Assembly (NCBI GenBank): GCA_963835085.1
Contig: CAWIED010000004.1
Coordinates: 72,508-136,507, forward strand
Reading direction: 5' to 3'
From: an uncultured Actinomycetota bacterium
GTDB lineage: Bacteria; Actinomycetota; Actinomycetes; Actinomycetales; CAWJMD01
Length of the DNA stretch: 64,000 nt
Shown here piece after piece: positions 3,866 to 51,381 of the stretch (position 1 is its first letter; the number at the start of each line of letters is the position of its first letter). Made by a program: the position numbers and the translations under genes. The notes under the pieces are model-generated. The model saw nothing but the letters and a program-made list of their open reading frames with translations, did not search any database and was not told the DNA's origin.

Positions 3866-3888
3866 GAGCAATGTGATGAGACGGAAGG

Positions 3889-4059
3889 ATGCAGCAAGTG
3901 ATTATTGATCGCACGGAAGAACAGGTGGTACAGGAGCTAACCGACGATGAGCGCGCTCTACTCAAGAGGGTCCTGCAGATCGAGCGCGCCAAGCTCCATG
4001 TCAGCGCCTACGAGCCGACCGACGACCTGCTGGCCGTCGTGAAGGAGATCTTGCCGTGA
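3889..4059 (+). CDS. Small hypothetical protein (56 aa), below the ORF-track cutoff
   Basis: ATG at 3889 preceded by GGAAGGA. High-GC3 codons. Its stop overlaps the GTG start of the next gene (GTGA at 4056-4059). Fills the otherwise empty gap between the helicase and ATPase genes. Confidence 0.4.
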   Translation: MQQVIIDRTEEQVVQELTDDERALLKRVLQIERAKLHVSAYEPTDDLLAVVKEILP

Positions 4060-6110
4060 AGCTGCACCGGATCACGCTGACGAACTTTCGCCAGTTCAAG
4101 GGCGAGCAGCCTTTCGACCTGCGGTCGGACACGCTAATGCCAGTTACGCTGCTCTTCGGTGCCAACGGTGCGGGAAAGACGACACTCCTCAACGCTTTTA
4201 CCTGGGCGCTCTACGGCTCGCTGTCTGATGATCTCGAGCAGCAGGAGCGCCTCGTCACCGACAGTGTCTGGCGAGCAACTGCCGCGGGTGGCTCGGCAAG
4301 TGCCAGCGTGGAGCTGGTCTTCGATCACGAGGGTCAGGGCTACCGTCTACGCCGGCGGATTACGCTCCGCAAGGAGGGTGACCACCAGGCGAAGGCAGCA
4401 CCCGAAGTGCAGTTGTGGATGACCTCGTCGGACGGCTCTTCCGAGATTGTGGGAGCGCCTCAGGAGAAGATCCAGTCGATCCTGCCTCGCAGTATCAGCC
4501 GCTTCTTCTTCTTCAACGGGGAGCGTATTGAGAAGCTCGTTGAGAAGAGCGCGTATAGCGAGGTTCAACAGGACATCAAAGTGCTACTGGATCTGGAACA
4601 GGTCGAGCGAGCGCTTGCCCACCTTCCAAAGGTGGATCGGAAACTAACGGCGGATATCCGTAAGCATGGCGGGGACAAAGCCAGCGATATCCAGAACGCG
4701 ATCGACCAACTTGGCGAACGTGAGTCAAGCTTCCGCGATGAGCAGAAGATCCTTGAGGGTGACCTTGCGACCCTGAACAAGGAGCGCGAGGAGGTCACCG
4801 AGTTGCTGCGGCAACATGACGCTGCAGCTCCCATACAGGCGCAGAGGGATTCCGTCACCCGGCAACTCGAGGAGACGCGGATTGGACTCGACACTGCGGT
4901 GAAGGAGCGTGCGAACCTCATCGCAACACGGGGATTTCTGGCATTCACCGAGGAGCTCGGCGACGCAACCGGTTCGATGGCCGAGCAGCTGTACGAACGG
5001 GGTGCCCTGCCGGCTCCTCTCAAGCGTGAGTTCGTCGACCAGTTACTCGATGAGGGCATCTGCATTTGCGGTACGGGTTTGGCGGAGCACAGCGAGCCAT
5101 GGAAGCACGTAACGGAATGGCGTCAGCGAGCTGGACTGCAGGCGGTCGAGACCGCGTGGCAAAAGCTGAGCGGTCAGATCGAGCCGATGGCGGCGGCGCG
5201 GAGCGACCTGCGAGAGGCTCTCGGACGGATTGTGAAGCGGATCGGCGATCTTCGCGACAGCATCGCCGAACTGGAGGAGACGAAGTCCGAGCTCGATGGC
5301 AAGCTGCGCGACAGCCGGCTGGAGGATGTTCAGGCGCTGGAGTCGAAGCGGATCGACCTCGACAACCGACACGGCGAGAAGCAGCGCCGGATCGGTGCGG
5401 TAGCAAGTGATCTCCAGCGGATTGCAAAGGACATCCAGCACAAGGTCCAGGAACTCAAGAACGCAGAGGTGACTGACGAACTGGCCGCCAAGGCGCGAGC
5501 GCGCTCGGACATGGTCAGGAACGTCAAGCGTGCGCTCGAAGAAATCTTGGAGATCCGTTCAGAGCGGATGCGTCAGCGCCTCGACGCCGAACTCAAGTCG
5601 ATCTACAGGAGTATCACGTACAAGAACTACGTCCCGGCGCTCAGCGAGTCGTTTGAGCTGACCCTGCATACCAATGTGGACGGCGTGCTACTGCCCGTCG
5701 GCAAGTCCACCGGCGAGAACCAAATCCTCAGTCTGAGCTTCGTCGCCGCAGTCTCCAAGCTTGCTCGTGAGATCCGCAAGGAGCGCCGGGCGGAGGGCGA
5801 GTCCGCCGAGGACGCAGGCACCTACCCCATCGTGATGGATGCCGCGTTCGGGTCGCTCGACGAGAACTACCAGGAGTCCGTAGCGCGCGTGCTCGCTCGG
5901 ATGGCTCCCCAGTTGGTAGTGCTGGTGAGCAAGAGCCAGGGACTCGGAAAGGTGGTCGCCGAACTGGGCCCGTACGTCAGCCACCTTGGGGTCATTGAGG
6001 TCCACAGCAGCCTGACAGGTGCCGATGAAGACATTGAGTTGCGCGGACATGGCTATCCATACATCCGCCACGCCGAGACCGACTACGCCCTGCTTAAGGA
6101 GATTCAGTGA
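4056..6110 (+). CDS. SMC/ABC-type ATPase, DndD-like paralogue (684 aa)
   Basis: N-terminus MKLHRITLTNFRQFKG...LLFGANGAGKTTLLNAFTWALYG (Walker A). Long coiled-coil-like E/L/R-rich middle region. C-terminal signature-like STGENQILSL and Walker B/D-loop YPIVMDAAFGSLD. Same layout as DndD at 10569. Confidence 0.85.
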   Translation: MKLHRITLTNFRQFKGEQPFDLRSDTLMPVTLLFGANGAGKTTLLNAFTWALYGSLSDDLEQQERLVTDSVWRATAAGGSASASVELVFDHEGQGYRLRRRITLRKEGDHQAKAAPEVQLWMTSSDGSSEIVGAPQEKIQSILPRSISRFFFFNGERIEKLVEKSAYSEVQQDIKVLLDLEQVERALAHLPKVDRKLTADIRKHGGDKASDIQNAIDQLGERESSFRDEQKILEGDLATLNKEREEVTELLRQHDAAAPIQAQRDSVTRQLEETRIGLDTAVKERANLIATRGFLAFTEELGDATGSMAEQLYERGALPAPLKREFVDQLLDEGICICGTGLAEHSEPWKHVTEWRQRAGLQAVETAWQKLSGQIEPMAAARSDLREALGRIVKRIGDLRDSIAELEETKSELDGKLRDSRLEDVQALESKRIDLDNRHGEKQRRIGAVASDLQRIAKDIQHKVQELKNAEVTDELAAKARARSDMVRNVKRALEEILEIRSERMRQRLDAELKSIYRSITYKNYVPALSESFELTLHTNVDGVLLPVGKSTGENQILSLSFVAAVSKLAREIRKERRAEGESAEDAGTYPIVMDAAFGSLDENYQESVARVLARMAPQLVVLVSKSQGLGKVVAELGPYVSHLGVIEVHSSLTGADEDIELRGHGYPYIRHAETDYALLKEIQ

Positions 6111-6596: not shown

Positions 6597-7790
6597 CTAG
6601 ACGCTGATGAGTGCTGCGAGCCGGTCGACGAGATCGCGGAGCGGGATATCAACGGTCTGCGGGCCCCACGACAGTCGGAGCGCTCCTGCCACGCGTTCTG
6701 GTTCGTATCCAGCCGCGACCAGAACATGGCTTGGCTCGTAGCTCTGGCTAGTGCAGGCTGACCCGTTTGACAACGCAACGATATCTTTCAGTGCTACGAG
6801 CGCTGCTTCGGAGTCGATGCCGGGGATGGAGAAATTCAAGGTGCTGGCCATTGTCCGAAGCGGGTCACCGTTGAGCTGAGCACCTAGTGGAGTCAACGCC
6901 GCGAGGAGCTGTTGCTTTATTGCCGCGGCCTCCTCTGTGTAGGCGCGGACTTCTTTTTGTGCGATCGCAGCGGCGGTGCCAAGACCTGCTATTAGGGCGA
7001 CTGGGAGAGTTCCGGGTCGGAGTCCGCGCTCTTGGCCGCCCCCATACATCAGTGGGGTGAGTGGGGGGCGTTGGTAGCCGCGGCGGCGGGTGATGAGACC
7101 GCCGATGCCCTTGGGCGCGCCGATCTTGTGACCCGAAAATGCGAGTAGGTCGATACGTGGGTTCTGCAGCAGGGTAATCAGCTTGCCGTATGCCTGGGCG
7201 GCGTCGACGTGGAAGTACGCGTCGTGTCCGTCAAGTACTTGGGCGATGCCTTCGATCGGCTGGATGACGCCAGTCTCGTTGTTGACAGCCATCACCGAGA
7301 CCAGCAACGTGTCGGGCCGGAGGGCCTCGGCGACGGCCTCCGCTGAGACCCAGCCTCCATGGTTGGGTGGCAGTAGCGTGATCTCGAAGCCTTGCTTGTC
7401 GAGGGCTTCGAGTGGCTCTAGAACGGCCTTGTGTTCGATTTGGGTAGAGATGATGTGCTTCTTGCCGTGGGCTTCACCGTGGGGAGCGAGTCCGAGGATG
7501 GCGAGGTTGTCGCTCTCTGTAGCGCCACTGGTAAAGACGACTTCGTCGGGCTTGGCGGCGACCACGGCTGCCACCTGGTCGCGTGCCTGGTTGACCCTGG
7601 CTTTGGCGATCTGGCCGTAGCTGTGTGTTCGGCTGCCCGCGTTGCCGAACTCCAGTGTCATGAAGCGCATGACCTCCTCGGCCACGCGCGGGTCGACCGG
7701 CGCCGTGGCGTTGACGTCCAGGTAGGTCGGTCGTCGCGGGCCTCCGGCGGCTCGCTGATCGGCCTTGTCGGAGGTGCTCGCTACTGTCAT
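6597..7790 (-). CDS. dndA: Cysteine desulfurase DndA (IscS/NifS class V aminotransferase)
   Basis: PLP-lysine motif FSGHKIGAPKGIGGL and active-site Cys loop LSNGSACTSQS. Start chosen at the ATG at 7790 (MTVASTSDK...) because the longer ORF extension is not protein-like. Divergent from dndB. Confidence 0.88.
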   Translation of the reverse strand: MTVASTSDKADQRAAGGPRRPTYLDVNATAPVDPRVAEEVMRFMTLEFGNAGSRTHSYGQIAKARVNQARDQVAAVVAAKPDEVVFTSGATESDNLAILGLAPHGEAHGKKHIISTQIEHKAVLEPLEALDKQGFEITLLPPNHGGWVSAEAVAEALRPDTLLVSVMAVNNETGVIQPIEGIAQVLDGHDAYFHVDAAQAYGKLITLLQNPRIDLLAFSGHKIGAPKGIGGLITRRRGYQRPPLTPLMYGGGQERGLRPGTLPVALIAGLGTAAAIAQKEVRAYTEEAAAIKQQLLAALTPLGAQLNGDPLRTMASTLNFSIPGIDSEAALVALKDIVALSNGSACTSQSYEPSHVLVAAGYEPERVAGALRLSWGPQTVDIPLRDLVDRLAALISV

Positions 7791-7879
7791 GTTTGGAAGC
7801 CTAGCCGCTGTACGGATCGTTGTTTGGATTGTTCGCATGGAGTGTTTGGAAGTGGATCCAAACATGGTAGGACTGGAGT
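7791..7879. promoter_or_regulatory. Divergent dndA/dndB intergenic region with repeated GTTTGGA boxes (candidate operator/promoter)
   Basis: GTTTGGA at 7791, 7822 and 7844, plus the inverted copy TCCAAAC at 7857. Together 7844-7863 forms the palindrome GTTTGGAAGTGGATCCAAAC. The 89-bp region is more AT-rich than its flanks. Confidence 0.35.
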
Positions 7880-9037
7880 ATGGCAGGGACGGGATCGATC
7901 GACCGGGCGCTGGTGACCGTGCCGCCAAGCGCGCGGGCGGGGGAGTTTGAGTACGTCTTTCCGGCGATCCGTGGTGTCCAGGCTGGCCACGTGTACTACG
8001 TGACGATGTGTCCGCTCCGTATCATTCCACGCCTCTTCCTGTTCAACGAGGAGGAGTTGCCGCCTGAGATGCGCGCCCAGCGATCGCTGAACAAGAACCG
8101 CGTGCCGGAGATGGCCCGTTACATCGTGGAGAACCCGGACAGCTACATCTTCTCGGCGTTGACCGCCAGCGTGAACGCGGATGTGCGCTTCGACTCGTTG
8201 CTGGGCGGCAGCGGTGCGACGGAGCGTATCGGGACGCTCACGATCCCGATGTCGGCCACCTTCGTCATCAACGATGGTCAGCATCGGCGCGCGGCCATCC
8301 AGCAAGCACTCACGGAGAACCCATCCCTGGGTGAGGAGACGATTGCCATCGTGATGTTCATCGACGTCGGACTGCGCCGCTGCCAGCAGATGTTCGCGGA
8401 CCTCAACCGCTACGCGATCCGTCCGGCGCCTTCGATCGGTGTGCTCTACGACCATCGCGATCCCATGGCTGAGATCACCCGGCAGGTCGTGACCAGCACC
8501 CCGTTCCTGCGGGACGTCACCGACATGGAGAACAGCAGCTTGGCGCAGCGATCCCGCAAGCTCTTCACGCTCTCCTCGCTGCACACGGCCAATGCCTCGC
8601 TGCTTGAGGACATCGAGGTTGACAACTTCGACGAGCGCGTGCGGCTCGCACGCGCGTACTGGCATGCGGTGGCCGGTCAGTTTCCACATTGGCAGCAGGT
8701 CTACCGCGCGGAGATCACCGCGGGTGAGGTGCGTCGTGACTTCATTCACACTCACAGCATCGTTCTGCATGCTCTCGGCCGGATCGGCAACGCGCTACTG
8801 CGCCAGAGCGTCGATCCCACGACCTGGACTAGGACTCTCTCGGAACTGGGCAGCATTGACTGGCATCGTGCCAATGCCGCAGTGTGGGAAGGCCGCGCAA
8901 CATCGGGCGGAACCGTGAGTAAGAGCCGTCGCAACGTTGAACTGACTACCGCCCATATCCGGACTGTCCTCGGGCTCCCGCTGCCACCTGATGAGCAGCG
9001 CGCCGAGGACGCTTTCGTTGGAGGAGACACGAAGTGA
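7880..9037 (+). CDS. dndB: DndB (DGQHR-domain PT regulator)
   Basis: FVINDGQHRRAAIQ (DGQHR motif). N-terminus FPAIRGVQAGHVYYVTMCPLRIIPRLFLFNEEELPPEMRAQRSLN is typical of DndB. Stop overlaps the dndC start (GTGA). Confidence 0.9.
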   Translation: MAGTGSIDRALVTVPPSARAGEFEYVFPAIRGVQAGHVYYVTMCPLRIIPRLFLFNEEELPPEMRAQRSLNKNRVPEMARYIVENPDSYIFSALTASVNADVRFDSLLGGSGATERIGTLTIPMSATFVINDGQHRRAAIQQALTENPSLGEETIAIVMFIDVGLRRCQQMFADLNRYAIRPAPSIGVLYDHRDPMAEITRQVVTSTPFLRDVTDMENSSLAQRSRKLFTLSSLHTANASLLEDIEVDNFDERVRLARAYWHAVAGQFPHWQQVYRAEITAGEVRRDFIHTHSIVLHALGRIGNALLRQSVDPTTWTRTLSELGSIDWHRANAAVWEGRATSGGTVSKSRRNVELTTAHIRTVLGLPLPPDEQRAEDAFVGGDTK

Positions 9038-10572
9038 CCACCAGCTTGCCGATCCGTCCGCGTTCTGCGTTCGACGAACTGGGCTTTTCCAGCACCGTGG
9101 ATGCGCTGGTTGCGCAGACGCAGCAGCTCTACCTCGCGGACAGTGTGCCCTGGGTGGTTGGCTACTCCGGCGGCAAGGACTCGACGGCCACACTGCAGCT
9201 CGTCTGGCTCTCGCTGGCGCGTTTGAGCCCGAACCAGCGCACCAAGCCGGTACATGTCATCAGCACGGACACGCTGGTGGAGAACCCTGTCGTCGCCGCG
9301 TGGGTGACCCATTCCCTCGACGTGATGGCTGAGGCTGCCGAGGAGCAGGGTCTGCCCTTGACGCCGCACCGGCTGACGCCTGCGGTCACCGACACCTTCT
9401 GGGTCAACCTCATTGGCCGCGGATACCCGGCTCCTCGTCCGAAGTTCCGCTGGTGCACCGAACGGCTCAAGATCAAGCCGTCGAACGCGTTCATCCGCGA
9501 GATGGTGCGGTCCCATGGCGAGGCCATCCTCGTGCTCGGCACCCGCAAGGCCGAGAGCTCGGGACGGTCATGCGCGCATGGCCGCGCTGGAGTCGCGTCG
9601 CGTCCGCGACCTACTCAGCCCGAACGACTCGCTCCCGAACTGCGCTGGTGTATTCGCCGGTCGAGAACTGGTCGAACGATGACGTGTGGACGTTCCTCAT
9701 GCAGTCGCCCAACCCGTGGGGCTACTCCAACAAGGAGCTGCTCACGATGTACCAGGGCGCCTCGGCCGATGGTGAGTGCCCACTGGTGGTCGACTCCAGC
9801 ACACCCAGCTGCGGCGATAGCCGTTTCGGCTGCTGGACCTGCACGCTCGTGGAGAAGGACAAGTCAATGTCGGCCATGATCCAGAACGACGAAGAGAAGG
9901 AGTGGATGCTGCCACTCCTGGAGCTGCGCAACGCGCTCGACGTCGCCGGACGATCGCCACTTGCGTGACTTCCGCCGGATGAATGGCTCGGTGCAGCTCT
10001 TCCATGACAAGACCATCCCCGGGCCGTACACACAGACCGCGCGGGAGGACTGGCTGACTCGACTGCTTGAGGCGCAGGCGTGGATTCGGGAGAACGGCCC
10101 CGACTACGTGAACTCCCTCGATCTGGTCACGCTTGCTGAGCTTGAGGAGATCCGCCGCATCTGGGTTGTCGATAAGCACGAGTTCGAAGACAGCCTGCCT
10201 CGGATCTATGAGAAGGCAATGGGCGAGCCGTACTCGGGCGGTAAGCTCGACGAGCACCTGCCGCTCGGTGCAGACATGATTGAGTCTCTGCACGCCGTGG
10301 CGGGCGGCGACCGACTGCACTTCGAACTAGTACGCGAACTACTCGACATCGAGCAGCGCCACCGCGCCCAGGTGCGACGCTCAGGACTCTTCGACTCCCT
10401 GGAGAAGGCCCTCCGCAAGGGCTTCTACGACGACGAAGAGGACGCCACGTTGCGTGCGCAACGCCGCAAGGCTGCCATGGAACGCGCACCCGACTCGCCC
10501 CCGGACACCGAGCCCGATCCGCTCGATGTGGCGGACGGGTACGTGCGGGCAGTAGCGGAGTCGACGCCGTGA
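9034..10572 (+). pseudogene. dndC: DndC (PAPS-reductase-like PP-loop ATP pyrophosphatase with Fe-S cysteines), split by three +1 frame changes
   Basis: PP-loop VVGYSGGKDSTATLQLVW. Conserved text continues across the three frames: ...GTRKAESS / ARMAALESRRVRDLLSPNDSLPN / LVYSPVENWSNDDVW...CPLVVDSSTPSCGDSRFGCWTC...LLELRNALDV / DDRHLRDFRRMNGSVQLF... Shifts are near 9561-9563, 9641-9646 and 9948-9949. First and last segments share a frame. Confidence 0.85.
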
Positions 10573-12539
10573 TCCTCGGAAAGCTGGTCCTGCACAATGT
10601 CGGCACCTTCGCTGGGCGTCAGGTAGTCGACCTGACACCGGTGTCTGAAACAAAGCCAGTAGTCCTGATCGGAGGCCTGAACGGCGCTGGAAAGACAACG
10701 ATCCTAGAAGCTATCCAACTCGCGCTCTACGGGTCGCTGGCACACGCCTCCGGACGACGCGCTGGCAGCTACGAGAACTACCTCCGCAGCCTCATCCACC
10801 GCGGCGTGGCTGCCAGTGAGGGAGCAGCCATAGAACTCAACTTCACGGCTCATCAGGAAGGCCAAGAGCACACCTACTGGATTCGCAGGAGTTGGAAGGC
10901 GACCGGCTCCTCGATTCGGGAGATCTTGCTGGTCGCCGTCGATGGCAAGCACAACCAGTCACTCGGCAGTACCTGGAACGAGCACATCGAAACCTTCCTG
11001 CCGCGCGGTATCGCCGGGCTCTTCTTCTTCGACGGTGAGCAGATCGAGGCACTCGCCGATCTCGATCGTTCCCGACAGGTCCTGGGTTCGGCCCTTGCGG
11101 CCTTGCTTGGTCTGGACCTGGTCGAACGGCTGTCGACCGATCTCTCGGTGTTGCGACGTCGTCACCATGGCGAGCAGGTGCCAGAGAGCCTGCGCCGGAG
11201 CCTGGAGGAGAAGAAGCAATTGGTCACCGCCCTGCGTCAGGCCGAAGAAGCTGCGATCGAAGCGGTCGCTGCACGCCTCACCGAACTCGAACGGTGCCAG
11301 AAGGTCTTCCACGAGGTGACCGAGGCGCACCGGTCCGCGGGCGGCGATTTGGTGGAGCGTCGTGAGGCGTTGGAGGCATCGGCGGCCATGGTGCGGTCAG
11401 GACTTGCTCGTGCCGAGGACGACATCCGCCACGAGCTGGCGGAACTGACGCCGCTGCTGCAGGTGCCAGTTCTCCTTGATCAACTCCGCTCCCAAGCCGA
11501 GATGGAGGCGGCGGCCACGCGGGATCGGCTGTTGGTCGAAGCCCTCGTAGCGCGGGATGACACGCTGATGCAACAGCTCACGGAGGCCAAGGTCAAGACC
11601 TCTACGCTCGTCGCTGTCCAAGAGTTCCTCACGAGGGACCGGCAGAAGCGTCAAGCGTCAGCCGCGACCGGGGCGATCCTCGGATTCGGCGATCACCTGG
11701 CTCTTGAGAACCTGATGTCTGCACTTCCGGAGTCGCGGAAACGGCTGCAGGCTGCGACTAGGCGTCGGTCCGATGCGAAGGCCGAACTTGATCAGGCGGA
11801 GCGCATGCTCGCTGCAATCCCTGACCCGGAATCGCTGGCGCCATTGAACCGGGCTCGTGAAGAAGCCCGTGAGGCGATGCTGCGGGCTGAAGCGGCACAC
11901 AATTTCGCAACCGAGTTGCTGACAACGGCGGCCGCAGATCGCGCTAAGGCAACCGGCGCCTACGAGTCGGCGCTCGACAAGGCGGCTCACGCTAACCTCG
12001 CCGCTGACGACGACCGCCGACTGGTCGAGCATGTCGATCGTGTCCGCGCCACGCTGGAAAATTTGCGGGTCACCGCCACCCGACGCCATCTGGACCGCAT
12101 CTCACAACTCGTTCTAGAGGCTCTCGGCATGCTCCTGCGCAAGCAGAAACTTGTCACGGACGTCAAGATCGACCCCGAGACCTACACGGTCTCGCTCACG
12201 GGCGTCGACGGGCACGCATTGCCAGCCAAAGAGCTCTCTGCAGGAGAGCGTCAACTGCTGGCCGTCGCACTGCTCTGGGGCCTGGCACGAGCCGCCGGCC
12301 AGCCCCTGCCGGTCGTGATCGACACGCCACTGGGCCGCCTCGACGGATCTCACCGAGAGCACCTGCTCATGCGGTACTTTCCGCACGCCAGCCACCAGGT
12401 TGTGTTGCTGTCCACGGATACCGAGATCGATGAGGAGGCTTACGACCTGATCGCACCACGCATCGGTCGCAGCTACCACTTGGAGTTCGACCAGGAAATC
12501 AACGCGACGTTCGTCGACGACGGCTATTTCTGGAGCTGA
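10569..12539 (+). CDS. dndD: DndD (SMC-like ABC ATPase of the PT modification complex)
   Basis: MILGKLVLHNVGTFAG...LIGGLNGAGKTTILEAIQLALYG. Signature LSAGERQLLAVALLWGL. Walker B LPVVIDTPLGRLD. GTGA overlap with dndC. Confidence 0.9.
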   Translation: MILGKLVLHNVGTFAGRQVVDLTPVSETKPVVLIGGLNGAGKTTILEAIQLALYGSLAHASGRRAGSYENYLRSLIHRGVAASEGAAIELNFTAHQEGQEHTYWIRRSWKATGSSIREILLVAVDGKHNQSLGSTWNEHIETFLPRGIAGLFFFDGEQIEALADLDRSRQVLGSALAALLGLDLVERLSTDLSVLRRRHHGEQVPESLRRSLEEKKQLVTALRQAEEAAIEAVAARLTELERCQKVFHEVTEAHRSAGGDLVERREALEASAAMVRSGLARAEDDIRHELAELTPLLQVPVLLDQLRSQAEMEAAATRDRLLVEALVARDDTLMQQLTEAKVKTSTLVAVQEFLTRDRQKRQASAATGAILGFGDHLALENLMSALPESRKRLQAATRRRSDAKAELDQAERMLAAIPDPESLAPLNRAREEAREAMLRAEAAHNFATELLTTAAADRAKATGAYESALDKAAHANLAADDDRRLVEHVDRVRATLENLRVTATRRHLDRISQLVLEALGMLLRKQKLVTDVKIDPETYTVSLTGVDGHALPAKELSAGERQLLAVALLWGLARAAGQPLPVVIDTPLGRLDGSHREHLLMRYFPHASHQVVLLSTDTEIDEEAYDLIAPRIGRSYHLEFDQEINATFVDDGYFWS

Positions 12540-12541
12540 CC

Positions 12542-12940
12542 ATGCCCATCGAACACATACGTCTTAGCCGACAGGCACGTGACCAGCTCATTACGCTGAA
12601 ACGACGCACCGGCATCCAGCACTGGAACGTCCTGTGCCGCTGGGCACTATGCCGCTCACTCGCCGAACCCGCACCACCACCAGCAACCAAGCTCACACTC
12701 GACAGCAACGTCGAAATGAACTGGCGGACATTCAGCGGCGAACTCGGCGACGCCCTCTGGGCACTCCTCCAGATGCGCTGCCACAACGACGGTCTGACAC
12801 TCGACGAAGAGACCCTAGCGCATCAGTTCAAGCTTCACCTCCACCGAGGCATCGGATACCTCGTTGGCGACCCACGAGTCACCGACGTCGTTGGACTCGC
12901 CAGCGTCGGACTCCAAGAGCCTGACGCACCCGCCGCATGA
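12542..12940 (+). CDS. dndE: DndE
   Basis: MPIEHIRLSRQARDQLITLKRRTGIQHWNVLCRWALCRSL matches the characteristic DndE N-terminus. Starts 2 nt after the dndD stop. Confidence 0.85.
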   Translation: MPIEHIRLSRQARDQLITLKRRTGIQHWNVLCRWALCRSLAEPAPPPATKLTLDSNVEMNWRTFSGELGDALWALLQMRCHNDGLTLDEETLAHQFKLHLHRGIGYLVGDPRVTDVVGLASVGLQEPDAPAA

Positions 12941-14424
12941 AGCCAGTCGCTGTCGCGCGACACAAGACCGCCCTCACCAGAACCGCCCTGTCGCGTCCGG
13001 TCGTGACCGCCATCGCCGATGGCCTTCTCGAGCCATCTGCGGCGATCTTCGACTACGGCTGCGGGAAGGGCGACGATATCCGCCACCTACGAGCCCGTGG
13101 CTTCGACGTGGATGGGTGGGACCCGACCCACCGACCCGCAACACCGAAGAGGTCCGCGCCTGTAGTGAACCTGGGCTACGTCATCAACGTCATCGAGGAC
13201 CCCACAGAACGCGCCACCGTCCTCCGGCAAGCATGGGCACTAACCGAAAAGCTCCTTATAGTGTCGGCGCGGATGCGCTGGGACGCTCGTGACCTTAGCG
13301 GTCGCCCTCTCGGGGACGGTCTCGTCACGCGGACTGGGACCTTCCAGAAGTTCTACCAACAGTCCGAACTCGCTGACTGGATCGAGGACACCGTCGGCGA
13401 GAAACCTCACGCCGCAGCACCGGGCATCTTCTATCTCTTCCGCGACGCCAGCGCCGCCCAACGTTTCCTGGCCTCCCGTGTCTACACCTACCGCCCCCGC
13501 GTCCACATCAACCCCCACGACCTCTACGAGACCCATCGTGAGGCGCTATCGCCACTCCTGAAGTTCATGCAGAACCACGCGCGACCCCCACGCGCTGGCG
13601 AAATCACTGATCACGATCACGCAGGAGTCCTCGCAGCTCTCGGCGGTATCGGTCGTGCTCAGCGACTAATCCGCGACGTCACCGACGACGCCTACTGGGA
13701 GGAAGTCACGCGCCGTCGCCGCAACGAACTCCTCATCTACATCGCACTCTCTCGTTTTGAGCGTCGACCCCGATTTTCGCATCTCGACCGCACTCTCGCC
13801 ACGGATGTTCGCGCCCTCTTCAGCAGCTACCAGGACGCCTGCCGCCAAGCCGACCGCCTGCTTCTTGCCTGCGGCGACCAAACGAGGCTCTACCTCCAAG
13901 CACGCAATTCGGCTATCGGCAAGCAGACGCCCAGCGCCTTATACGTGCATCGCTCCGCGATGGCCCTCACTTCACCGCTCCTTCAGGTCTACGAAGGTTG
14001 CGCTCGTGTCCTTGCCGGGACTATCGACCGCGCGAACATGATCAAGTTGTCGGTTACTCAACCGCAGATATCCTACTTAGCCTATCCCGAATTTGACCGC
14101 AAACCACACCCGACGCTCCAGACTGCAATAACCGTCAATTTGCGACAACTTACCGTACAGTGGCGTGACTATAGTAATTCCGATAATCCTCCACTTCTCC
14201 ACCGTAAAGAGGAATTTCTCGGCCCCGATCATCCAAAACGGAGACTGTACGAACGCCTGACGCGTGCCGAGATGCGTGCCGGTCTATATCAGAAGCCCGA
14301 GCAGATCGGCACTCTACTCGGATGGCAGGCGTCGCTTAGGGACGCGGGATATGTCCTTCGGGGGCATAAACTGATTCGCACCTGCGATCAACCATCGAGC
14401 CGTCCGGGTGCCCAACCCATGTAG
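12937..14424 (+). CDS. PT-associated putative SAM-dependent methyltransferase (495 aa)
   Basis: Motif I-like AIFDYGCGKGDDIRHLRARGFDVDGWDP. ATGA overlap with the dndE stop. Large C-terminal region of unknown function. Confidence 0.75.
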   Translation: MKPVAVARHKTALTRTALSRPVVTAIADGLLEPSAAIFDYGCGKGDDIRHLRARGFDVDGWDPTHRPATPKRSAPVVNLGYVINVIEDPTERATVLRQAWALTEKLLIVSARMRWDARDLSGRPLGDGLVTRTGTFQKFYQQSELADWIEDTVGEKPHAAAPGIFYLFRDASAAQRFLASRVYTYRPRVHINPHDLYETHREALSPLLKFMQNHARPPRAGEITDHDHAGVLAALGGIGRAQRLIRDVTDDAYWEEVTRRRRNELLIYIALSRFERRPRFSHLDRTLATDVRALFSSYQDACRQADRLLLACGDQTRLYLQARNSAIGKQTPSALYVHRSAMALTSPLLQVYEGCARVLAGTIDRANMIKLSVTQPQISYLAYPEFDRKPHPTLQTAITVNLRQLTVQWRDYSNSDNPPLLHRKEEFLGPDHPKRRLYERLTRAEMRAGLYQKPEQIGTLLGWQASLRDAGYVLRGHKLIRTCDQPSSRPGAQPM

Positions 14425-14610
14425 CGCAGCGTTAGCCAGTGGTCCTCCGAATCGCTCGCGCGAGGACTTGGACGCATCGCCGCGGGCGTGGAAGATGAGT
14501 CCCTTCTCCGGTCAGCCTATCGGCATGCCAGCCCGATCTCGACCGATTCAATTCGCCATCCCGAGATCGGTCTTTCGGGGACCACCGCTAACGCGGCGCG
14601 TCGTGGAGGC

Positions 14611-15453
14611 TCAGACCGTGCCGAGGGTCAGCTTGAACTTGTCAAGGGTCCAGGTCTCGAAGGGCAAGCCCAACAGTGCCGCGACCTCAGCCACCAGAAT
14701 CGGGTGAGCCACGCCACCGGAGCTCCAGTCATCCTTCACATCTTCGGTGATGAGGACCGCAGAGGAAAACGACGCGCCGCTCTCCTTCGCCTCCGACAGC
14801 CCTAGTAGAAAGTCAGCCCACACGAAGAAGTCACCGTCGCCGGGATCCTTGAAGCCGGGCGGGGTCCTGGTGCTATTGCGCACGCGCGCGAGGCGGGCGA
14901 ATCTGCTCCGGGGTACATAAGTGACCCGAGCTCGCGCGTCCAGCATCTCCCACAGATCCGTGAATCGCTCGACGGTCTTTGGGTCGTAGAGGTAGCCGTA
15001 CTGAGCCTCGACATCTCTCAGGAGCTCCCCGAAGCGCTCTTGCAACTCCTCGGCAAAATTTGCCTTAGAAAGCTCCTTCGCCAAGCTATCGTACTTCTTC
15101 TGGACCGCTTTGGAGACTGTGTCAATAACGGGGACCGTGTTATTCCAGAACTCTTGGACCACCTGTCCGGGTACAACCAGTGGTGCTTCGTGGGATGTTT
15201 CAAGGTAGTCGCGTAGGTCCGTCGTCTTCGGATCGGCTCTAGCCATCCGCAACACGATGTTCGTGTCGAGGCCGAACGCCGTCTTGGAAATGTCGGAAAT
15301 TCCTTCGGCGCCCGAGCTGCGCCGCGACAGCGAGGTCTTAAGCGCGCTAAGCGACTGGAGTGGGTCGGCGCGATCAAGAACACGCTCGACCCTGTCGACG
15401 AGCTGGTCGGTTACGCGGCGCCCTGCTTCGGCGCTGGGCTCAGTACCAGACAT
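14611..15453 (-). CDS. PIN-like domain protein (DUF4935-like)
   Basis: FGLDTNIVLRM (N-terminal acidic PIN motif) and C-terminal PPGFKDPGDGDFFVWADFLL...AVLITEDVKDDW. Start set at the ATG at 15453; it overlaps the upstream gene's end by 43 nt. Confidence 0.6.
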   Translation of the reverse strand: MSGTEPSAEAGRRVTDQLVDRVERVLDRADPLQSLSALKTSLSRRSSGAEGISDISKTAFGLDTNIVLRMARADPKTTDLRDYLETSHEAPLVVPGQVVQEFWNNTVPVIDTVSKAVQKKYDSLAKELSKANFAEELQERFGELLRDVEAQYGYLYDPKTVERFTDLWEMLDARARVTYVPRSRFARLARVRNSTRTPPGFKDPGDGDFFVWADFLLGLSEAKESGASFSSAVLITEDVKDDWSSGGVAHPILVAEVAALLGLPFETWTLDKFKLTLGTV

Positions 15454-17057
15454 TCGCGCAAGCCTCTGCGGCCGACGGAGCCGACGGTGGCCACCGTATG
15501 AGTGTTCCAATCATCGAACTCAGCCAATCGTTTCGCCCATTCGCCTTTGACGCCTGTGTGTAGCAGCACCGCCTTCACGCCTTCCCAACTTGTTGCGTCT
15601 CGGGGGCGCCGATATGAGGTGCTGAGAAAGGCGTTGCCGATCGTCGACCCCCAGTAGGTGACGTCATCCTCGTCGAACCCTGCCCATCTAGTGGCGCTTC
15701 GCGGGCGTACGAGGTGCAGGAATCCGATCACCTCAGGGGTCAACGAACCCTGCACGAGGGATCGTCGGAGGAACTGTAGGGTGCTCTTGTTGAACGAGCG
15801 CTTCCTGAGCTGCTCGATGAAATCGTCCCGAGTAGCGTCCAGTGGCGCCAGCTCGGCAGTAGCTCGCGCCCAGTCTCTGGTATTCGTTATGAGGCTGGCA
15901 GCTTCACTGAAGCGGCGCTCGGCACCGCTGGTCCCTAGGTTTCCGACAACTGTACGCCGCGCGACGACCTTCAGCACGTGGAGCATCGCGTCGTCAGAGT
16001 CATCCATGGTTGATGCCGCCATCAAGAGGGGGCGGACCGCCGCGACATTGAGCTCGTTGAGCGACTCGAAAATTCGCAGCTGCGACGGCGTGGCCGGACC
16101 ATCGACAGTCGGATCGATCATTTGGAGGTAGATCGGGAGCCACTGTTCAAGTCGTTCTAGCAACTCTCCAACGGCCGGCGCCTGGGTCGCACCGCGCCGT
16201 TGCGCAAGGTAGTCGTACAAGTCCTTCGGCAAGATATAGCCGGAGCCCATGCTTACCACATGACGAATGAACTGCACGAAATTGTTCGCCGGGGAAGTTC
16301 CAAACTGTGTGGCTAGTTGTGACCAGCGCCGGTAATGCGATGCACGCAATTTGGGAGCCGTTTGGCTAAGGAGATAGTTCTTGAGCAGGTCGGCAGTCGT
16401 GAGCTCTCGGCCGCGGGTGTTAATAACCTCGAATACCCGGTACGCGGCACCGGGGTTGGGGTGCACAAAAACCGCAAAGTAGAGCCTATCGGTAAGGAAC
16501 TGGGTCCAAAGGCTCAACCTCCGGAAGGGATCTTCGCTTAGGTGCTCCCGAACCTTGTTACAAAGAAACGTGTACGACTCGAGAAGTCGCTCGGATATGG
16601 TCCCATCGTCGCCGCCGGCGGCGTCCGCCGTGAAGGGTTCATCCGAATTAATGATGCGCTGTAAGGTGGCGTTGTCGGTGACATCGCTGAGAGCGATCCT
16701 TTCTACGTACTCGTCAGAGTCGTAGTCGAGCACCTTGAGGAATGTCGACTCAATTTGGTCTGCCAGGCCACGACGACGGTGTTTTATGGCTTCGTGGCGT
16801 AGAGCGGCAGCCAGAAGTGTGATCGTCAGGAGACGCTGTTGGCCATCGACCACCTGCATGCGGTCTTCACTAGCAGTCAGGATCACCAGGCCGAGGAAGT
16901 ACGACTCGTCGTTGAGGCTGCTGCGGAGGTCGTTCCAAAACTCAATGTACTCGTCCTTCAACCAGGCGTACTCGCGCTGGAAGTCAGGAACCAAGAAGCG
17001 CTCGGTTGAGATCAGGGCGCCCGCCGTCGTCGCGGATGCTGTCAGCTGGCTCTGCAC
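15411..17057 (-). CDS. DUF262 (ParB-like NTPase) / DUF1524-like (His-Me finger) protein, GmrSD-family type IV restriction-like
   Basis: FLVPDFQREYAW and VVDGQQRLLTITLL (DUF262 signatures). C-terminal FLHLVRP...STIGNAFLS resembles a degenerate DUF1524 H..P / N motif. Visibly lower GC than the core genes. Confidence 0.78.
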   Translation of the reverse strand: MQSQLTASATTAGALISTERFLVPDFQREYAWLKDEYIEFWNDLRSSLNDESYFLGLVILTASEDRMQVVDGQQRLLTITLLAAALRHEAIKHRRRGLADQIESTFLKVLDYDSDEYVERIALSDVTDNATLQRIINSDEPFTADAAGGDDGTISERLLESYTFLCNKVREHLSEDPFRRLSLWTQFLTDRLYFAVFVHPNPGAAYRVFEVINTRGRELTTADLLKNYLLSQTAPKLRASHYRRWSQLATQFGTSPANNFVQFIRHVVSMGSGYILPKDLYDYLAQRRGATQAPAVGELLERLEQWLPIYLQMIDPTVDGPATPSQLRIFESLNELNVAAVRPLLMAASTMDDSDDAMLHVLKVVARRTVVGNLGTSGAERRFSEAASLITNTRDWARATAELAPLDATRDDFIEQLRKRSFNKSTLQFLRRSLVQGSLTPEVIGFLHLVRPRSATRWAGFDEDDVTYWGSTIGNAFLSTSYRRPRDATSWEGVKAVLLHTGVKGEWAKRLAEFDDWNTHTVATVGSVGRRGLRECLVLSPAPKQGAA

Positions 17058-17627
17058 GGATGTTCTCCCTCACCGCGATCTTCGCTGCATCCGGAACGTT
17101 ATCTCAGCGGGCTCTTCTTGCACTTACTGCATCATCGTGAAGTCTGCCGTAGCGGCCTGCGGAGCCTACTCCGAGTACGTTCAGACCTCCTGGATCGGGA
17201 GGACAGAGAGGTTTGACGTCATCGACGGCGTCCACGCCCACCCTGAAGGGCTCTCAACCGAGAGCCGCAAACCCGGTATGGGGGCGCGCCAGAGCACCCG
17301 GGTCGCTTCAGCTTGTGAACCCTGACCGGACCGGGCGGCGCCTGCGCCTGCTGCCGTAAGTGCCCTCGTGGTGGGTGGTCCTCGTGCTCGATCGGGGTGA
17401 TCATCTCGAGCTGCCCAGGACGGTCGTTTATCCTGGCATTCTGCGACGATGCGTGGTCAGAGTTGGACGTCTCAGCCGAGTTGAGGCGACGTGGCCGCTG
17501 ATGCGTGCGATCGCTCGCAGTCTTGCGGGCCCGTTCGAGGTAGTGGTTTCGGCTCATTCACGGTTCAGTCGGCGTCGAATAGACCATCGTCGCAGGTCGG
17601 CGAGTCGGCGGGGACGCTCTGTAAATC

Positions 17628-17727
17628 CGTCGGCTTAGCCTACGTTGGTTCGAATCCAACAGCTGCTACCAGCAGGAAACGAGGCCCTGACCAGCGGAAA
17701 CGCCGGTCAGGGCCTCGATCTATGTGT
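17628..17727 (+). repeat. Direct repeat copy 1: tRNA 3'-fragment (variable-arm-like hairpin, T-arm GTTGGTTCGAATCCAAC, acceptor strand AGCTGCT-A-CCA) plus a GC-rich GAAA-loop hairpin; att-like
   Basis: By manual alignment it matches 27225-27323 with 3 substitutions and 1 single-nt indel. No 5' acceptor strand or anticodon arm could be found upstream. Confidence 0.7.
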
Positions 17728-18043
17728 CCGGGCGGTGTCGGTGGGAAGCGGCCGTCTACGGGTGTCTGCGGATGAGGGGTGGATGAGTTTTGGGGTTTGC
17801 ATCGCCGCTCCGCTTGCTCCCGAACCGTGTGGCACGGCACCGATGCTGCCGCTGTGTCGCTCAATGGCCTAAGCGTCGAGGGTGCCCGACGGCCTCGGTG
17901 CGGTCCAAGGTCAAGCCAATGATCGCCTCGTCGTAGTTGCACGGAACCGCGCGGTGGTGAATGGCCTGAGTGGCCTTACGCACCTGTCGTGCCGCCGCAG
18001 CCTAGGGCGCACCTGGCTCGCGCAGCCGGCCTCGTGAGCCTCA

Positions 18044-18622
18044 TCAGCCGCTCCATCCCTCTCGCAGAGCGGTGGGCGTCCAGGCTGGCCAGCTCGCAGA
18101 GCCGATGAGCGCGCCGTGCTCGAACGAGGCGCAGAGGCGGAACGGGGCGCGCGCGCTGCTGTTGTCGAGCACCTCCGCCACGTCTGCGATCCGGATCGCT
18201 TCGCCGATGTGATCCCATAGGCGCTCATAGCGGTCGCGGATCTTCTGCTTCGGAACGGCATGGCCGCCGCGGCGCACTCGCTCAAGGACGCGCTGCACGG
18301 TGAGCTCGACAGGAACGATGATCACGTGCAGGTGCACGAGGTATCCGGCGTCGGCGGCGTCGGCGACGAGTTGGACCTTGCTCGGGTGCGAGAACACCGT
18401 CTCGGAGATGAACGACGCACCCTCGGCAATCCGGCCCCGACGCTGGGCCTCAGCGATCCGCGCCGCCTCGTAGGCGTGCTCGGCCTGAGCGTCGGGCCAC
18501 CGTTCGGCGGCGATCTCGTCGGCGTTGATGAATGGCAGGCCGGTCGCCGGCGTCAGGACGTCGTGCACGTAGCTCGACTTCCCCGCACCGTTTGGGCCAG
18601 CAAGAAGGTGCAGCAGTGGCAT
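18044..18622 (-). CDS. Zeta-toxin-like P-loop kinase/ATPase (COG4185-like) toxin
   Basis: MPLLHLLAGPNGAGKSSY (Walker A). 192 aa. Start overlaps the stop of the upstream small gene (TGATG). Confidence 0.7.
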   Translation of the reverse strand: MPLLHLLAGPNGAGKSSYVHDVLTPATGLPFINADEIAAERWPDAQAEHAYEAARIAEAQRRGRIAEGASFISETVFSHPSKVQLVADAADAGYLVHLHVIIVPVELTVQRVLERVRRGGHAVPKQKIRDRYERLWDHIGEAIRIADVAEVLDNSSARAPFRLCASFEHGALIGSASWPAWTPTALREGWSG

Positions 18623-18981
18623 CAGCCGCGAGCCGGGTGGACGATCAGGTTGCCGTCCTCGTCGGCCTCGGAGTACGACTCACCGCCGGCCGCGAACCGC
18701 GCCGCGTAGTCCAGCCCGTCCCGTAGCTCCGTCATGCGAGCGGCCCATTCCTCGCGGATGATGGCCTGCTCCCGCTCACCGAGCGAGTCGTAGGACCCCG
18801 TGCCGGTGAGGACCCTGACGATCTGCCGGTGGTTCACCCGCGGCGACATCTCCAGCTCGCGCCCGATACGCGCCCAGTGCGCGATCTGCTGCGGCACCGT
18901 CCGGGATGTGACGCGCGCCGCTGCGAGGGCGGACTCATACACGTCCGCGGGGAGCCGGGTCGGCTGGCTTGCCCTGGTCAT
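18622..18981 (-). CDS. ParD-like antitoxin (119 aa)
   Basis: Start at the ATG at 18981 (MTRASQPTRLPADVYESALAAARVTSRTVPQQIAHWARIGRELE...). Translationally coupled to the toxin gene. The longer ORF extension is R/P-rich and unlikely to be real. Confidence 0.55.
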   Translation of the reverse strand: MTRASQPTRLPADVYESALAAARVTSRTVPQQIAHWARIGRELEMSPRVNHRQIVRVLTGTGSYDSLGEREQAIIREEWAARMTELRDGLDYAARFAAGGESYSEADEDGNLIVHPARG

Positions 18982-19073
18982 GCAACCAGTGTAGCGCCGT
19001 GCTACCCGATTGCTGCGACGCGCAGCTCGTCGACGAGGCTTGCCAGGACGCACCGGCCGAGGAGCGCGCGGAC

Positions 19074-19441
19074 ATGCTGCCCGCCCTCGAGGACGCCCTA
19101 CAGGCCCTCTGCAACGCGGGGGAGCAGTGGCACCAGGCACACGCGCCCCCAGGTCAGGACGCAAGCTCGGCCGAGCTGCGCGCCTACCAGGACGTGATCG
19201 AGGCCCAGGCCGAGCAGGAGGCCGCCGCGGAGGAGAGCTTGCGCCGCCGCTATGCCGAGGCGTTCGCGGTCTATGCCGAGCGGTTCACCGCCGCCGTCCT
19301 CGACGCGGCCACGGCTCTTGCCGGGCTCACGGTGCCGGTCGAGGTGCGGGCTGAGGTCGATCCAGCCGCGCCGTGGTGGGACGTCGAGCGCGGGACACCA
19401 TCAACCCGCAGGAGTGGGACGAGGACGACGAGCTCGCGTGA
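19074..19441 (+). pseudogene. Hypothetical protein, apparently missing 1 nt at the G-run 19392-19394
   Basis: High-GC3 ORF MLPALEDALQAL...AAPWWDVERG continues in another frame as DTINPQEWDEDDELA-stop with near-perfect GC3. No recognisable family. Confidence 0.3.
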
Positions 19442-29494: not shown

Positions 29495-29570
29495 GCCCCG
29501 ATAGCTCAGTCGGCAGAGCGTCTCCATGGTAAGGAGAAGGTCTAGGGTTCGATTCCCTATCGGGGCTCCA
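29495..29570 (+). tRNA. tRNA-Thr (anticodon GGT), CCA encoded
   Basis: Manual cloverleaf: GCCCCGA/TCGGGGC acceptor, GCTC/GAGC D-stem, TCTCC-ATGGTAA-GGAGA anticodon arm, TAGGG-TTCGATT-CCCTA T-arm. Confidence 0.92.
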
Positions 29571-29603
29571 CTGGCCCGGTCAGCTTTGACGACCGGGCCA
29601 CTA

Positions 29604-38320: not shown

Positions 38321-38375
38321 CGGGTCGTCGTGGATGCACCGTCCACGATGAGTTCGTTCGAGAGAAAGTTAGTTT

Positions 38376-47883: not shown

Positions 47884-51381
<3,498 letters not shown>

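Follow-up and report, generated by a model that had tools for sequence, protein, structure and literature searches.

A DUF262 gene and an overlapping PIN_8 gene as a conserved two-gene unit and probable variant of GmrSD-like defence

A growing number of modification-sensing defence enzymes are GmrSD-like, among them GmrSD, BrxU, SspE, DndI, HEC-06 and TgvAB/GrwAB; to our knowledge, all of these are believed to rely on a His-Me nuclease of their own. DndI of Salmonella Cerro 87 (PDB 9JFL), a single protein with a DGQQR-containing DUF262 domain, a helical domain and a C-terminal ββα domain, is an active HNH nickase whose ATPase is stimulated by phosphorothioate (PT) DNA (PMC11662687). HEC-06 (Hma-embedded candidate 06) is a GmrSD-like one-gene system in which EHICP is required, and its defence is abolished by Q79A or R80A in the DGQQR motif as well as by E471A or H472A (bioRxiv 10.1101/2024.01.29.577857). 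In the two-gene type IV modules TgvAB and GrwAB of Vibrio cholerae, both proteins are needed; the first has an active His-Me site (H431A, N521A and N530A in GrwA abolish defence) and the second is another DUF262 protein (PMC12137116). Menshen NsnABC combines a nuclease-less sensor containing DUF262 and a DNA-binding domain, the ABC ATPase NsnB and a separate effector whose PIN-like domains have no catalytic residues (inPIN; PMC12065111). The architectures found in the literature were single-chain, DUF262 plus DUF262, or Menshen, and no named system pairing DUF262 with a PIN partner was found in PADLOC, NCBIfam or the literature, in agreement with the preliminary description of the locus analyzed here, in which no described two-gene system with this pairing was recognized.

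The window (the whole stretch of 64,000 nucleotides that was analyzed, from contig CAWIED010000004.1 of an uncultured Actinomycetota bacterium) carries such a pair on the minus strand, and both open reading frames were recovered where they had been placed before. The upstream gene (15411–17057; Pfam GmrSD_N) has a GTG start and encodes a DUF262 protein of 548 aa, the putative sensor; the downstream gene (14611–15453; Pfam PIN_8) encodes a predicted PIN_8 nuclease of 280 aa, the putative effector, with its ATG at 15453 inside a maximal open reading frame that begins at a TTG at 15510. All motifs previously quoted from the two proteins (DFQREYAW, DGQQRL, LDTNIVL, PPGFKD, GDFFVWADFLL and ITEDVKDDW) were found.

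The two genes form a strict conserved two-gene unit. A full-length DUF262 homologue (40–54% identity) lies directly upstream of, and overlaps, the PIN gene in 46 of 50 PIN-carrying genomic loci, the remaining four being gene fragments. In the other direction, a PIN gene follows 24 of the 25 DUF262 relatives with at least 40% identity and enough downstream sequence, and none of the 118 relatives below 40% identity. The pairwise identities of the two proteins are correlated (Mantel r = 0.79, a value reached by none of 2000 permutations), indicating co-divergence. With this reciprocal association and more than 70 independent loci in four bacterial phyla, the pairing is conserved elsewhere as a unit, which had been named beforehand as the test of the earlier proposal. 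In the 54 loci scanned, neither a large nor a small third gene is conserved up- or downstream of the pair, and a small conserved open reading frame was not found upstream of the sensor gene. DUF262-PIN fusion proteins were absent from the best 150 of 2792 PIN family matches, so that these matches provide no "Rosetta-stone" support for a physical interaction.

Judged by profile matches and its structural model, the upstream protein is a member of the HEC-06/DndI family (DndI being "Orf5" in PADLOC). Its DUF262 identity, proposed from the outset, is confirmed by Pfam (GmrSD_N/DUF262 on residues 17–230, E = 1.6e-31). Among PADLOC profiles, HEC-06 (PDLC04157) matches nearly the full length (E = 7.9e-68, residues 4–522 versus profile positions 6–540 of 558) and Orf5 matches with E = 5e-55; HEC-06 is probably the PADLOC label that the DUF262 gene would receive if taken alone. 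DndI 9JFL is both the best PDB match by sequence (E = 6e-7) and the best fold match of the AlphaFold model (pLDDT 87; TM 0.66, E = 7e-15), although sequence identity to DndI is only ~16–25%. In the protein, DUF262 (a ParB-like NTPase) is followed by a helical domain in the middle and by a C-terminus of degenerate His-Me (DUF1524-like) type. Whole-chain fold ranking places DndI first, SspE second and BrxU third. The likeness to GmrSD and SspE noted earlier thus holds for the N-terminal DUF262 sensor/NTPase domain, the three-part layout and the fold matches (Foldseek probability 1.0 for SspE and BrxU), but global superposition is poor (TM 0.31–0.44) and the closest characterized relatives are DndI and HEC-06. 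Membership of SspE was rejected, as similarity to the SspE profiles is confined to the N-terminal ~100 residues (E = 1.8e-14) and the modification genes present are dnd, with no ssp genes.

The DUF262 motifs, including FxxxN, are intact. Across 30 homologues, no variation was seen in Q27, R28, E29, Y30 and W32 of motif I (QREYAW, residues 27–32; 16962–16979, minus strand), in motif II (DGQQR, the NTP-hydrolysis motif, residues 71–75; 16833–16847, minus strand) or in the FEVINTRG region. F26 places an aromatic residue at the position of the PT-sensing Y25 of DndI, within the pattern [YF]QREY.

A different picture was obtained for the C-terminal domain. Pfam DUF1524 (GmrSD_C, PF07510) gave no match on the protein, and alignment of 138 full-length relatives defined a His-Me finger remnant at residues 447–484 (15606–15719, minus strand). 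All PIN-less relatives retain EH...GN...N, whereas the PIN-linked clade has L/T/V-H...GN...RRP, the Glu and the last Asn being gone in every member; in the window, L447-H448 stands where relatives have E-H, G474-N475 is kept and R483-R484-P replaces the last Asn. Of the former DUF262/DUF1524 label, the degenerate His-Me C-terminus remains valid, but DUF1524 is undetectable and no clade member keeps the catalytic Glu or the last Asn. The His has become Q or Y in ~20% of the clade (L006, L009, L026, L035, L039, L041, L059, L060, L063, L072, L073, L075 and L076). Since H448 is kept in ~80% of members and N475 nearly always, residual or altered His-Me activity may persist in the sensor. The loss of nuclease residues coincides exactly with the presence of the PIN partner and, because the decay is confined to the PIN-linked clade, the nuclease role has probably passed from the sensor to that partner. 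The clade therefore offers a clean natural experiment, in which loss of the site in exactly the lineage that gained a PIN gene implies effector exchange.

The PIN protein appears, from its conserved residues and predicted fold, to be catalytically complete and VapC-like. Pfam PIN_8 matches it with E = 2.2e-15 (57.6 bits versus a cut-off of 26.1), and PIN_12 (formerly DUF4935) reaches 30.4 bits, just below its cut-off of 32; it had been described as PIN-like and DUF4935-type, of which the former is correct but the latter is better replaced by PIN_8-type. The top Foldseek matches of its AlphaFold model (pLDDT 89, pTM 0.86) are VapC and FitB toxins (probability ~1, TM on target 0.5–0.59). Within the predicted catalytic acidic span (14728–15267, minus strand), D63 (15265–15267), E101 (15151–15153), D208 (14830–14832) and D242 (14728–14730) are invariant in 27 homologues and D238 (14740–14742) is conserved in at least 90% of them, and this D63/E101/D208/D238-D242 pattern matches the D-E-D-D active site of PIN domains (PMC5499597). 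The protein shares with VapBC modules the VapC-like fold with its acidic tetrad and the overlap of a downstream gene with an upstream one; however, it has 280 aa versus ~130 aa, with a two-helix N-terminal extension of ~55 residues and long helical insertions, and its upstream partner is a 540-aa DUF262 protein, not a small VapB (AbrB, MazE, RHH or PHD). It also differs from the Menshen effector in being catalytically complete and in the lack of an accompanying ATPase gene, although both systems would combine a DUF262 sensor devoid of its own nuclease activity with a separate PIN-like effector. PADLOC and NCBIfam profiles did not match the PIN protein even at E ≤ 1, by which DzbB, a PD-T4-2 partner and an HEC/PDC component were ruled out, and a PDB sequence search returned only noise. 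No PIN homologue was present in the phage database; viral contigs carry only distant, PIN-less DUF262 relatives.

The 43-nt overlap originally reported between the two genes is real in the present sequence but is not ancestral. The final 20 residues of the window sensor match no homologue, and the +1 frame of its 3' end reads ...AAEACANVWY before a stop, which is the conserved C-terminus of the family. A probable 1-nt insertion was located in a GGCC run (15470–15473, minus strand), where the +1 frame gives the family consensus and DNA alignment reveals one extra base relative to the closest homologue; it puts the last ~10 sensor codons out of frame and turns a 14-nt overlap into one of 43 nt. 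With the insertion removed, the sensor has 538 aa, of which 528 are untouched by the indel, and a TGA stop at 15440–15442. Exact look-up of two "repaired" 538-aa sequences in the sequence collection found neither of them, and no contig was listed for the 548-aa form. The ancestral junction, ATGTCTGGTACTGA (15440–15453, minus strand), comprises the PIN ATG (15451–15453) and the ancestral sensor TGA in a 14-nt overlap, which is likewise present in L005, L006, L018, L026 and L039, overlaps of 8–17 nt being found at other loci. The termini MSGT(E/D) and VWY-stop are conserved, and the overlapping start and stop suggest translational coupling. With this frameshift, either the local sensor may work less well or the sequence record itself may contain an error.

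The pair lies convergent to the dnd genes, as was described before. The dnd cluster (6597–14424; PADLOC and NCBIfam) consists of dndA (6597–7928, minus strand), dndB (7880–9037), dndC (9034–10572, with three 1-nt insertions as assembled), dndD (10569–12539), dndE (12542–12940) and a dnd-associated methyltransferase gene (12937–14424), and the convergent genes are dndB to dndE and the methyltransferase gene. A pbe module (1728–6110, plus strand; PADLOC PbeA and PbeC) comprises pbeA (1728–3865), split by a frameshift near 2840–2940, as indicated by a change of frame in a tblastn search using the intact L041 PbeA, and pbeC (4056–6110). A zeta/ParD toxin-antitoxin pair is also found next to the sensor-PIN pair in the window. 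Apart from dnd/pbe genes, present at about 10% of loci, no neighbour of the pair recurs; they flank it in the window, L002, L006, L026, L040, L041, L051–54 and L063, in at least four geometries, and these dnd-linked copies include one from Methylobacterium (L002) and one from Mycobacterium (L026). The sensor gene adjoins dndBCDE, in the manner of DndI, in the window and ~8 of ~75 other loci, though not at most loci. PIN endoRNases have been noted to border dnd loci (PMC10853773), and the pair, if confirmed, would give concrete content to that remark. Canonical EH-type relatives of the sensor directly follow dndE in L098–L100. Most copies lie in other surroundings, some of them beside restriction-modification genes on plasmids: the pair adjoins a Dam methylase and a DpnII endonuclease on the Rhizobium plasmid pTi6.2 (L216), and genes for a methyltransferase, a helicase and a CHAT protein on a Rhodococcus plasmid. 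An intact pair is also carried by Pseudomonas sp. PDM18 (L007). As ~90% of copies have no dnd within 4–8 kb, PT cannot be the general signal. The previous idea of a second, PT-aware nuclease layer thus receives partial support from the recurrence of dnd/pbe in several geometries, but most copies lie away from dnd, and the dndC of the window carries its three insertions as assembled.

From these data, the pair would be a real variant of two-gene GmrSD-like defence, and probably an undescribed one. It is judged somewhat probable that it represents a self-contained, horizontally mobile defence cassette in which a DndI-like sensor passes its signal to the PIN nuclease. The ancestors of such a cassette would be single-chain GmrSD-like enzymes belonging to the DndI/HEC-06 lineage. 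The retention of the NTPase motifs and the helical, putatively DNA-binding middle domain suggests that the sensor has kept its ability to read DNA; the analogy to DndI, SspE and GmrSD makes it probable that what it reads is a DNA modification state, which in dnd-linked copies would be PT. The PIN_8 protein, its translation apparently coupled to that of the sensor, might then provide the nuclease output in trans; the sensor would bind it and hold it in check until detection of non-self DNA releases or activates it. The PIN protein would subsequently cut nucleic acid. Its membership of the VapC group makes RNA the most likely substrate, which could lead to growth arrest or abortive infection; DNA nicking appears less likely. 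A bolder version is improbable at present: a DndI-like sensor that no longer cuts DNA might license a VapC-like RNase, with the absence of the host backbone mark from incoming DNA (PT if dnd-linked, another mark elsewhere) triggering RNA cleavage and abortive infection. If true, it would be the first link of DNA-backbone self-marking to an RNA-targeting effector.

Several other explanations have to be weighed against the signal-passing cassette. An upstream neutralizer and a downstream PIN toxin overlapping by 8–17 nt correspond to the classical type II toxin-antitoxin layout; together with the VapC-like fold, the occurrence of the cassette on plasmids and mobile islands and the adjoining zeta/ParD pair in the window, this could point to an addiction module stabilizing islands or plasmids, whose DUF262 protein only neutralizes the toxin and autoregulates, with no modification sensing. 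Such a module is considered unlikely, as no VapB resembles a 540-aa "antitoxin" whose NTPase motifs are invariant and whose three-domain fold is DndI-like, the relatives of the sensor are proven defence nucleases, and the recurrent neighbours are DNA-modification systems. Many toxin-antitoxin-like modules are themselves defence systems, so this explanation overlaps with the signal-passing cassette. The DUF262 protein might instead remain a DNA nuclease or nickase through a divergent His-Me site (H448 and N475), with the PIN protein as an accessory, independent RNase layer or regulator, resembling TgvAB/GrwAB. H448 is invariant and N475 conserved among the 30 closest sensor homologues, the AlphaFold model retains a predicted ββα-like element at residues 446–501, and there are two-gene GmrSD-like systems in which one subunit has an active His-Me site. 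However, a surviving sensor nuclease is doubtful given the clade-wide loss of the Glu before the His and of the last Asn, the replacement of the His by Q or Y in 13 loci, the essential role of the equivalent residues in HEC-06 and GrwA, and the exact coincidence of residue loss with PIN gain. The second protein of TgvAB/GrwAB, moreover, is a DUF262 protein, whereas here it is PIN_8 without DUF262.

For dnd-linked copies, a more specific role is possible, though considerably less likely to be right than wrong: they might constitute the restriction arm of the PT system, a split DndI in which self PT stimulates the NTPase and keeps PIN off, and PT-free DNA leaves PIN on. DndI as the closest solved structure, dnd/pbe as the one recurrent neighbour, the EH-type relatives directly after dndE and the aromatic F26 are all consistent with it, and the several dnd/pbe geometries argue against simple inheritance of one arrangement. 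On the other hand, most copies have no dnd nearby, the aromatic at the F26 position is general to DUF262, and defence systems can cluster in islands without functional coupling. DndI itself has a working HNH nickase within one protein, whereas here a separate PIN_8 gene is obligatory. The local copy might also be a decaying remnant with no current function, given the frameshifted sensor 3' end, the three insertions of dndC and the split pbeA alongside intact rpoB and rpoC. General sequencing noise was rejected as the cause of the indels, since rpoB, rpoC and fusA show no such damage and since, of the 17 differences between the window and L218, an independent contig from the same sample, 16 fall inside dndC. 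This contig, otherwise identical, carries an intact dndC and stops at window position 15469, exactly at the suspected sensor indel, so that the indels look like record errors or strain variants. With the PIN gene intact, including all catalytic residues, and only the last sensor residues affected, decay is thought to have a low probability.

If confirmed, the signal-passing cassette would give defence catalogues a candidate two-gene system that PADLOC v2 and NCBIfam lack, and would put right the automatic "HEC-06" calls made for PIN-linked DUF262 genes. It would also be a tractable system in which to study the transfer of a DNA-state signal from a ParB-like NTPase to a nuclease on another chain. 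A promoter and terminator scan of positions 14300–17600 detected nothing beyond shuffled expectation. The GC content of the pair is 0.57–0.60, below that of its flanks.

The two minus-strand genes, encoding a 280-aa PIN protein (14611-15453) and a 548-aa DUF262 protein (15411-17057), lie exactly where the preliminary description had placed them, and all the motifs that it quoted were found in the translated ORFs (DFQREYAW and DGQQRL in the DUF262 protein; LDTNIVL, PPGFKD, GDFFVWADFLL and ITEDVKDDW in the PIN protein). Its view that the pair is convergent with the DNA phosphorothioate (PT) modification operon was also confirmed, the facing genes being dndB-C-D-E and a TIGR04096 dnd-associated methyltransferase that ends at 14424; pbeA, pbeC and dndA are located further left. 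GC content was 0.57-0.60 across the pair versus 0.62-0.70 in its surroundings. The pairing, whose conservation elsewhere had been made decisive, is indeed conserved and represents a unit. A pattern scan for PIN relatives, with one genome per GTDB species, yielded 50 loci, 46 of which had a full-length DUF262 homologue (40-54% identity) encoded directly 5' of the PIN gene, in the same orientation and overlapping it, the other four being truncated PIN fragments or contig ends. In the reverse scan of metagenomes with the DUF262 alignment, 25 relatives had at least 40% identity and 600 nt or more of sequence beyond the gene, and a PIN gene was detected downstream of 24 of them, but of none of 118 more distant ones from metagenomes and viruses (23-34% identity). 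Across 42 loci, the two proteins showed correlated pairwise identities (r = 0.79, attained by 0 of 2000 Mantel permutations), and neither clustering of all flanking ORFs nor tblastx of the immediate flanks revealed a third conserved gene. Hosts include Pseudomonadota (alpha, beta and gamma), Actinomycetota, Chloroflexota and Bdellovibrionota. Among 1.84 billion representatives, the PIN family (E <= 1e-30) accounted for ~142 clusters when grouped at 50% identity, with members of 120-360 aa throughout and no DUF262-PIN fusion among the best 150 of 2792 matches.

By profile and by fold, the DUF262 protein belongs to the lineage of HEC-06 and DndI, two GmrSD-like defence proteins. Pfam assigned residues 17-230 to GmrSD_N/DUF262 (E = 1.6e-31) and detected no DUF1524; thus, of the proposed DUF262/DUF1524 architecture, the DUF262 domain and a degenerate His-Me C-terminus were retained. 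The top PADLOC profiles were HEC-06 (7.9e-68, almost full length) and 'Orf5' (5e-55), the latter being DndI because a DndI crystal-sequence fragment matched it at 4e-137. DndI (9JFL) was also the best PDB sequence match (6e-7) and the best fold match (TM 0.66/0.62, E = 7e-15) of a confident model (pLDDT 87), followed by SspE and BrxU. The suggested comparison with SspE and GmrSD therefore led to HEC-06/DndI as the nearest relatives, with PADLOC SspE profiles covering only the first ~100 residues. HEC-06 is a one-gene defence in which the DGQQR motif and the EHICP nuclease motif are both required (bioRxiv 10.1101/2024.01.29.577857), and DndI is a PT-sensing DUF262-HNH nickase partnering with IscS-DndBCDE (PMC11662687). 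In the DUF262 protein, the NTPase motifs were invariant among homologues. Alignment of 138 full-length DUF262 relatives demonstrated that every PIN-less relative retains the canonical His-Me finger, (I/L/V)EH(I/V)xP ... (L/I)GN(L)xLL ... N, whereas all members of the PIN-linked clade have Glu replaced by L, T or V and the last Asn by RRP, so that nuclease residues were lost exactly where the PIN was gained; roughly one in five members of this clade has Q or Y instead of the His. Canonical EH-type relatives were also observed directly downstream of dndE in three metagenome contigs (L098-L100), whose DndI-like genes (4001-5467; intact EH...GN...N, products 27% identical to the window protein) immediately follow dndC-D-E and illustrate the ancestral single-gene arrangement.

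The partner was identified as PIN_8 (Pfam, E = 2.2e-15), and its match to PIN_12 (formerly DUF4935) was slightly under the cut-off, so the initial PIN-like label holds, as PIN_8 and not as DUF4935. The best PDB fold matches of its confident AlphaFold model (pLDDT 89, pTM 0.86) were VapC and FitB toxins (probability ~1, target TM 0.5-0.59), in agreement with the placement of PIN_8, a family of unknown function, in the VapC group (PMC5499597). Residues D63, E101, D208 and D242 were invariant among homologues and D238 (TxD motif) nearly so, which makes the active site complete. The protein is double the size of VapC; it contains long helical inserts, and its N-terminus is extended by two conserved helices (LxxVLDR motif).

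As the preliminary description had supposed, no named DUF262-PIN system was found in PADLOC v2, NCBIfam release 20, RefSeq product names or the literature searched; RefSeq uses 'DUF262 domain-containing protein' and 'PIN-like domain-containing protein'. Unlike GmrSD, HEC-06 and DndI, the DUF262 protein has neither their defining nuclease feature nor their single-gene architecture. The two-gene GmrSD-like systems TgvAB and GrwAB comprise two DUF262 proteins with a retained active His-Me site (PMC12137116), whereas in Menshen an ABC ATPase links the effector to a DUF262 sensor that lacks a nuclease, and the PIN-like domains are inactive (PMC12065111). Given its lineage, its lost nuclease residues and the lack of a named match in those sources, the pair was considered a variant of existing GmrSD-like defence. 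Effector exchange is a common theme among defence systems, and the pair is thus not categorically new; it merits testing. It is best read, with moderate confidence, as a split GmrSD-like system, in which the DUF262/helical module would still read DNA state and hydrolyse NTP, the His-Me domain would have become a non-catalytic scaffold, and the translationally coupled PIN would supply nuclease activity, most likely against RNA in view of its VapC affinity. Domain states, linkage and genomic context are direct observations, whereas a complex, a trigger, a substrate and a defence phenotype are what we infer for such a system.

For the dnd-linked copies, including that of the window, it is possible, with a distinctly lower probability, that the pair is a dedicated PT-dependent restriction arm, i.e., a split DndI. 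Flanking-ORF clustering recovered only dnd or pbe genes as recurrent neighbours, in at least four geometries and mostly in Actinomycetota: convergent with the methyltransferase (window, L063), beside dndA (L002, L026, L051-54), convergent with dndE (L006), or upstream of a sigma-like gene and pbeA (L040, L041). About 90% of pair copies had no dnd within 4-8 kb, and these copies adjoin housekeeping genes, integrases or resolvases, or sit on plasmids, such as pTi6.2 (beside Dam methylase and DpnII endonuclease) and a Rhodococcus plasmid (with methyltransferase, helicase and CHAT protein genes adjacent). A plain toxin-antitoxin module, to which the VapC and FitB resemblance of the PIN would point, appears unlikely given the HEC-06/DndI membership of its partner. 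Equally doubtful is that the His-Me enzyme, though divergent, remains active and the PIN is an accessory; such an enzyme would have to work with the His kept in most members and with Glu and the last Asn lost in all.

That the local copy is a decaying remnant also seems improbable, and bears on several broken frames in the window. The reported 43-nt overlap of the two genes is present in this record but is a peculiarity of it, not a property of the system: in the DUF262 protein, the final 20 residues have no counterpart in any homologue, ...(A)xxVWY* being the ending common to all of these, and ...AAEACANVWY* is what the +1 frame encodes. DNA alignment with the closest relative revealed one extra base, most simply assigned to a GGCC run (15470-15473). 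With this base removed, the DUF262 stop is TGA at 15440-15442 and the overlap with the PIN start is 14 nt (ATGTCTGGTACTGA), as in L005, L006, L018, L026 and L039 (8-17 nt in other loci). In addition, dndC (9034-10572) passes through frames 1, 2, 3 and then 1, with single-base insertions near 9566, 9641 and 9943, and pbeA (1728-3865), a PLD-helicase restriction gene (TIGR04095) unbroken in the Nocardioides locus L041, is interrupted near 2840-2940 by a frameshift that leaves two overlapping ORFs; rpoB, rpoC and fusA are all intact. L218, a separate contig assembled independently from this sample and 99.8% identical to the window across 8.4 kb, encodes an intact DndC (511 aa) and ends at 15469, directly at the suspected DUF262-gene indel, so the indels are probably record errors or strain variants. 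Differences from L218 (14 SNPs besides the three insertions) are confined to 9147-10023, nearly all within dndC, and the rest of the 8.4 kb is 100% identical.

A second damaged sensor with an intact PIN gene, besides that of the window, was observed on a Rhodococcus sp. DMF-1 plasmid (L215:10342-11957), where annotation splits the DUF262 partner into two CDSs of 299 aa and 191 aa. A solo PIN_8 paralogue directly follows the dnd-associated methyltransferase in L051 (20566-21243; 225 aa, ~33% identity, PIN core only) and L052-L054, and also occurs at L039:266-916; in L051, the locus of the closest relative, the DUF262-PIN pair lies on the opposite side of dnd. Both the dnd-flanking pairs and this paralogue fit the remark that PIN endoRNases occur at dnd-locus boundaries, sometimes on the opposite strand (PMC10853773). 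Approximately 1 kb past the DUF262 gene, on the side away from dnd, a toxin-antitoxin pair is formed by a zeta-toxin/AAA_33 kinase (18044-18622, minus strand) and a ParD-like antitoxin (18622-19164, minus strand), the gap at 17058-18043 containing no convincing gene. Directly upstream of pbeA, a 576-aa protein (1-1731) with sigma-70 region 4 as its sole recognisable domain and weak MzaA-like matches may belong to the pbe module as a component or serve as its regulator; L040 and L041 have homologues (55-58% identity) at the equivalent place, and in L095 another adjoins a DUF262 gene of the canonical EH type. The defence island comprises roughly the first 17-20 kb and continues past the left window end, and conserved core genome makes up the right half, as indicated by tRNA-Thr, tRNA-Met and tRNA-Trp genes together with the intact rpoB and rpoC (29495-29679, 38248-38321 and 47860-55370).
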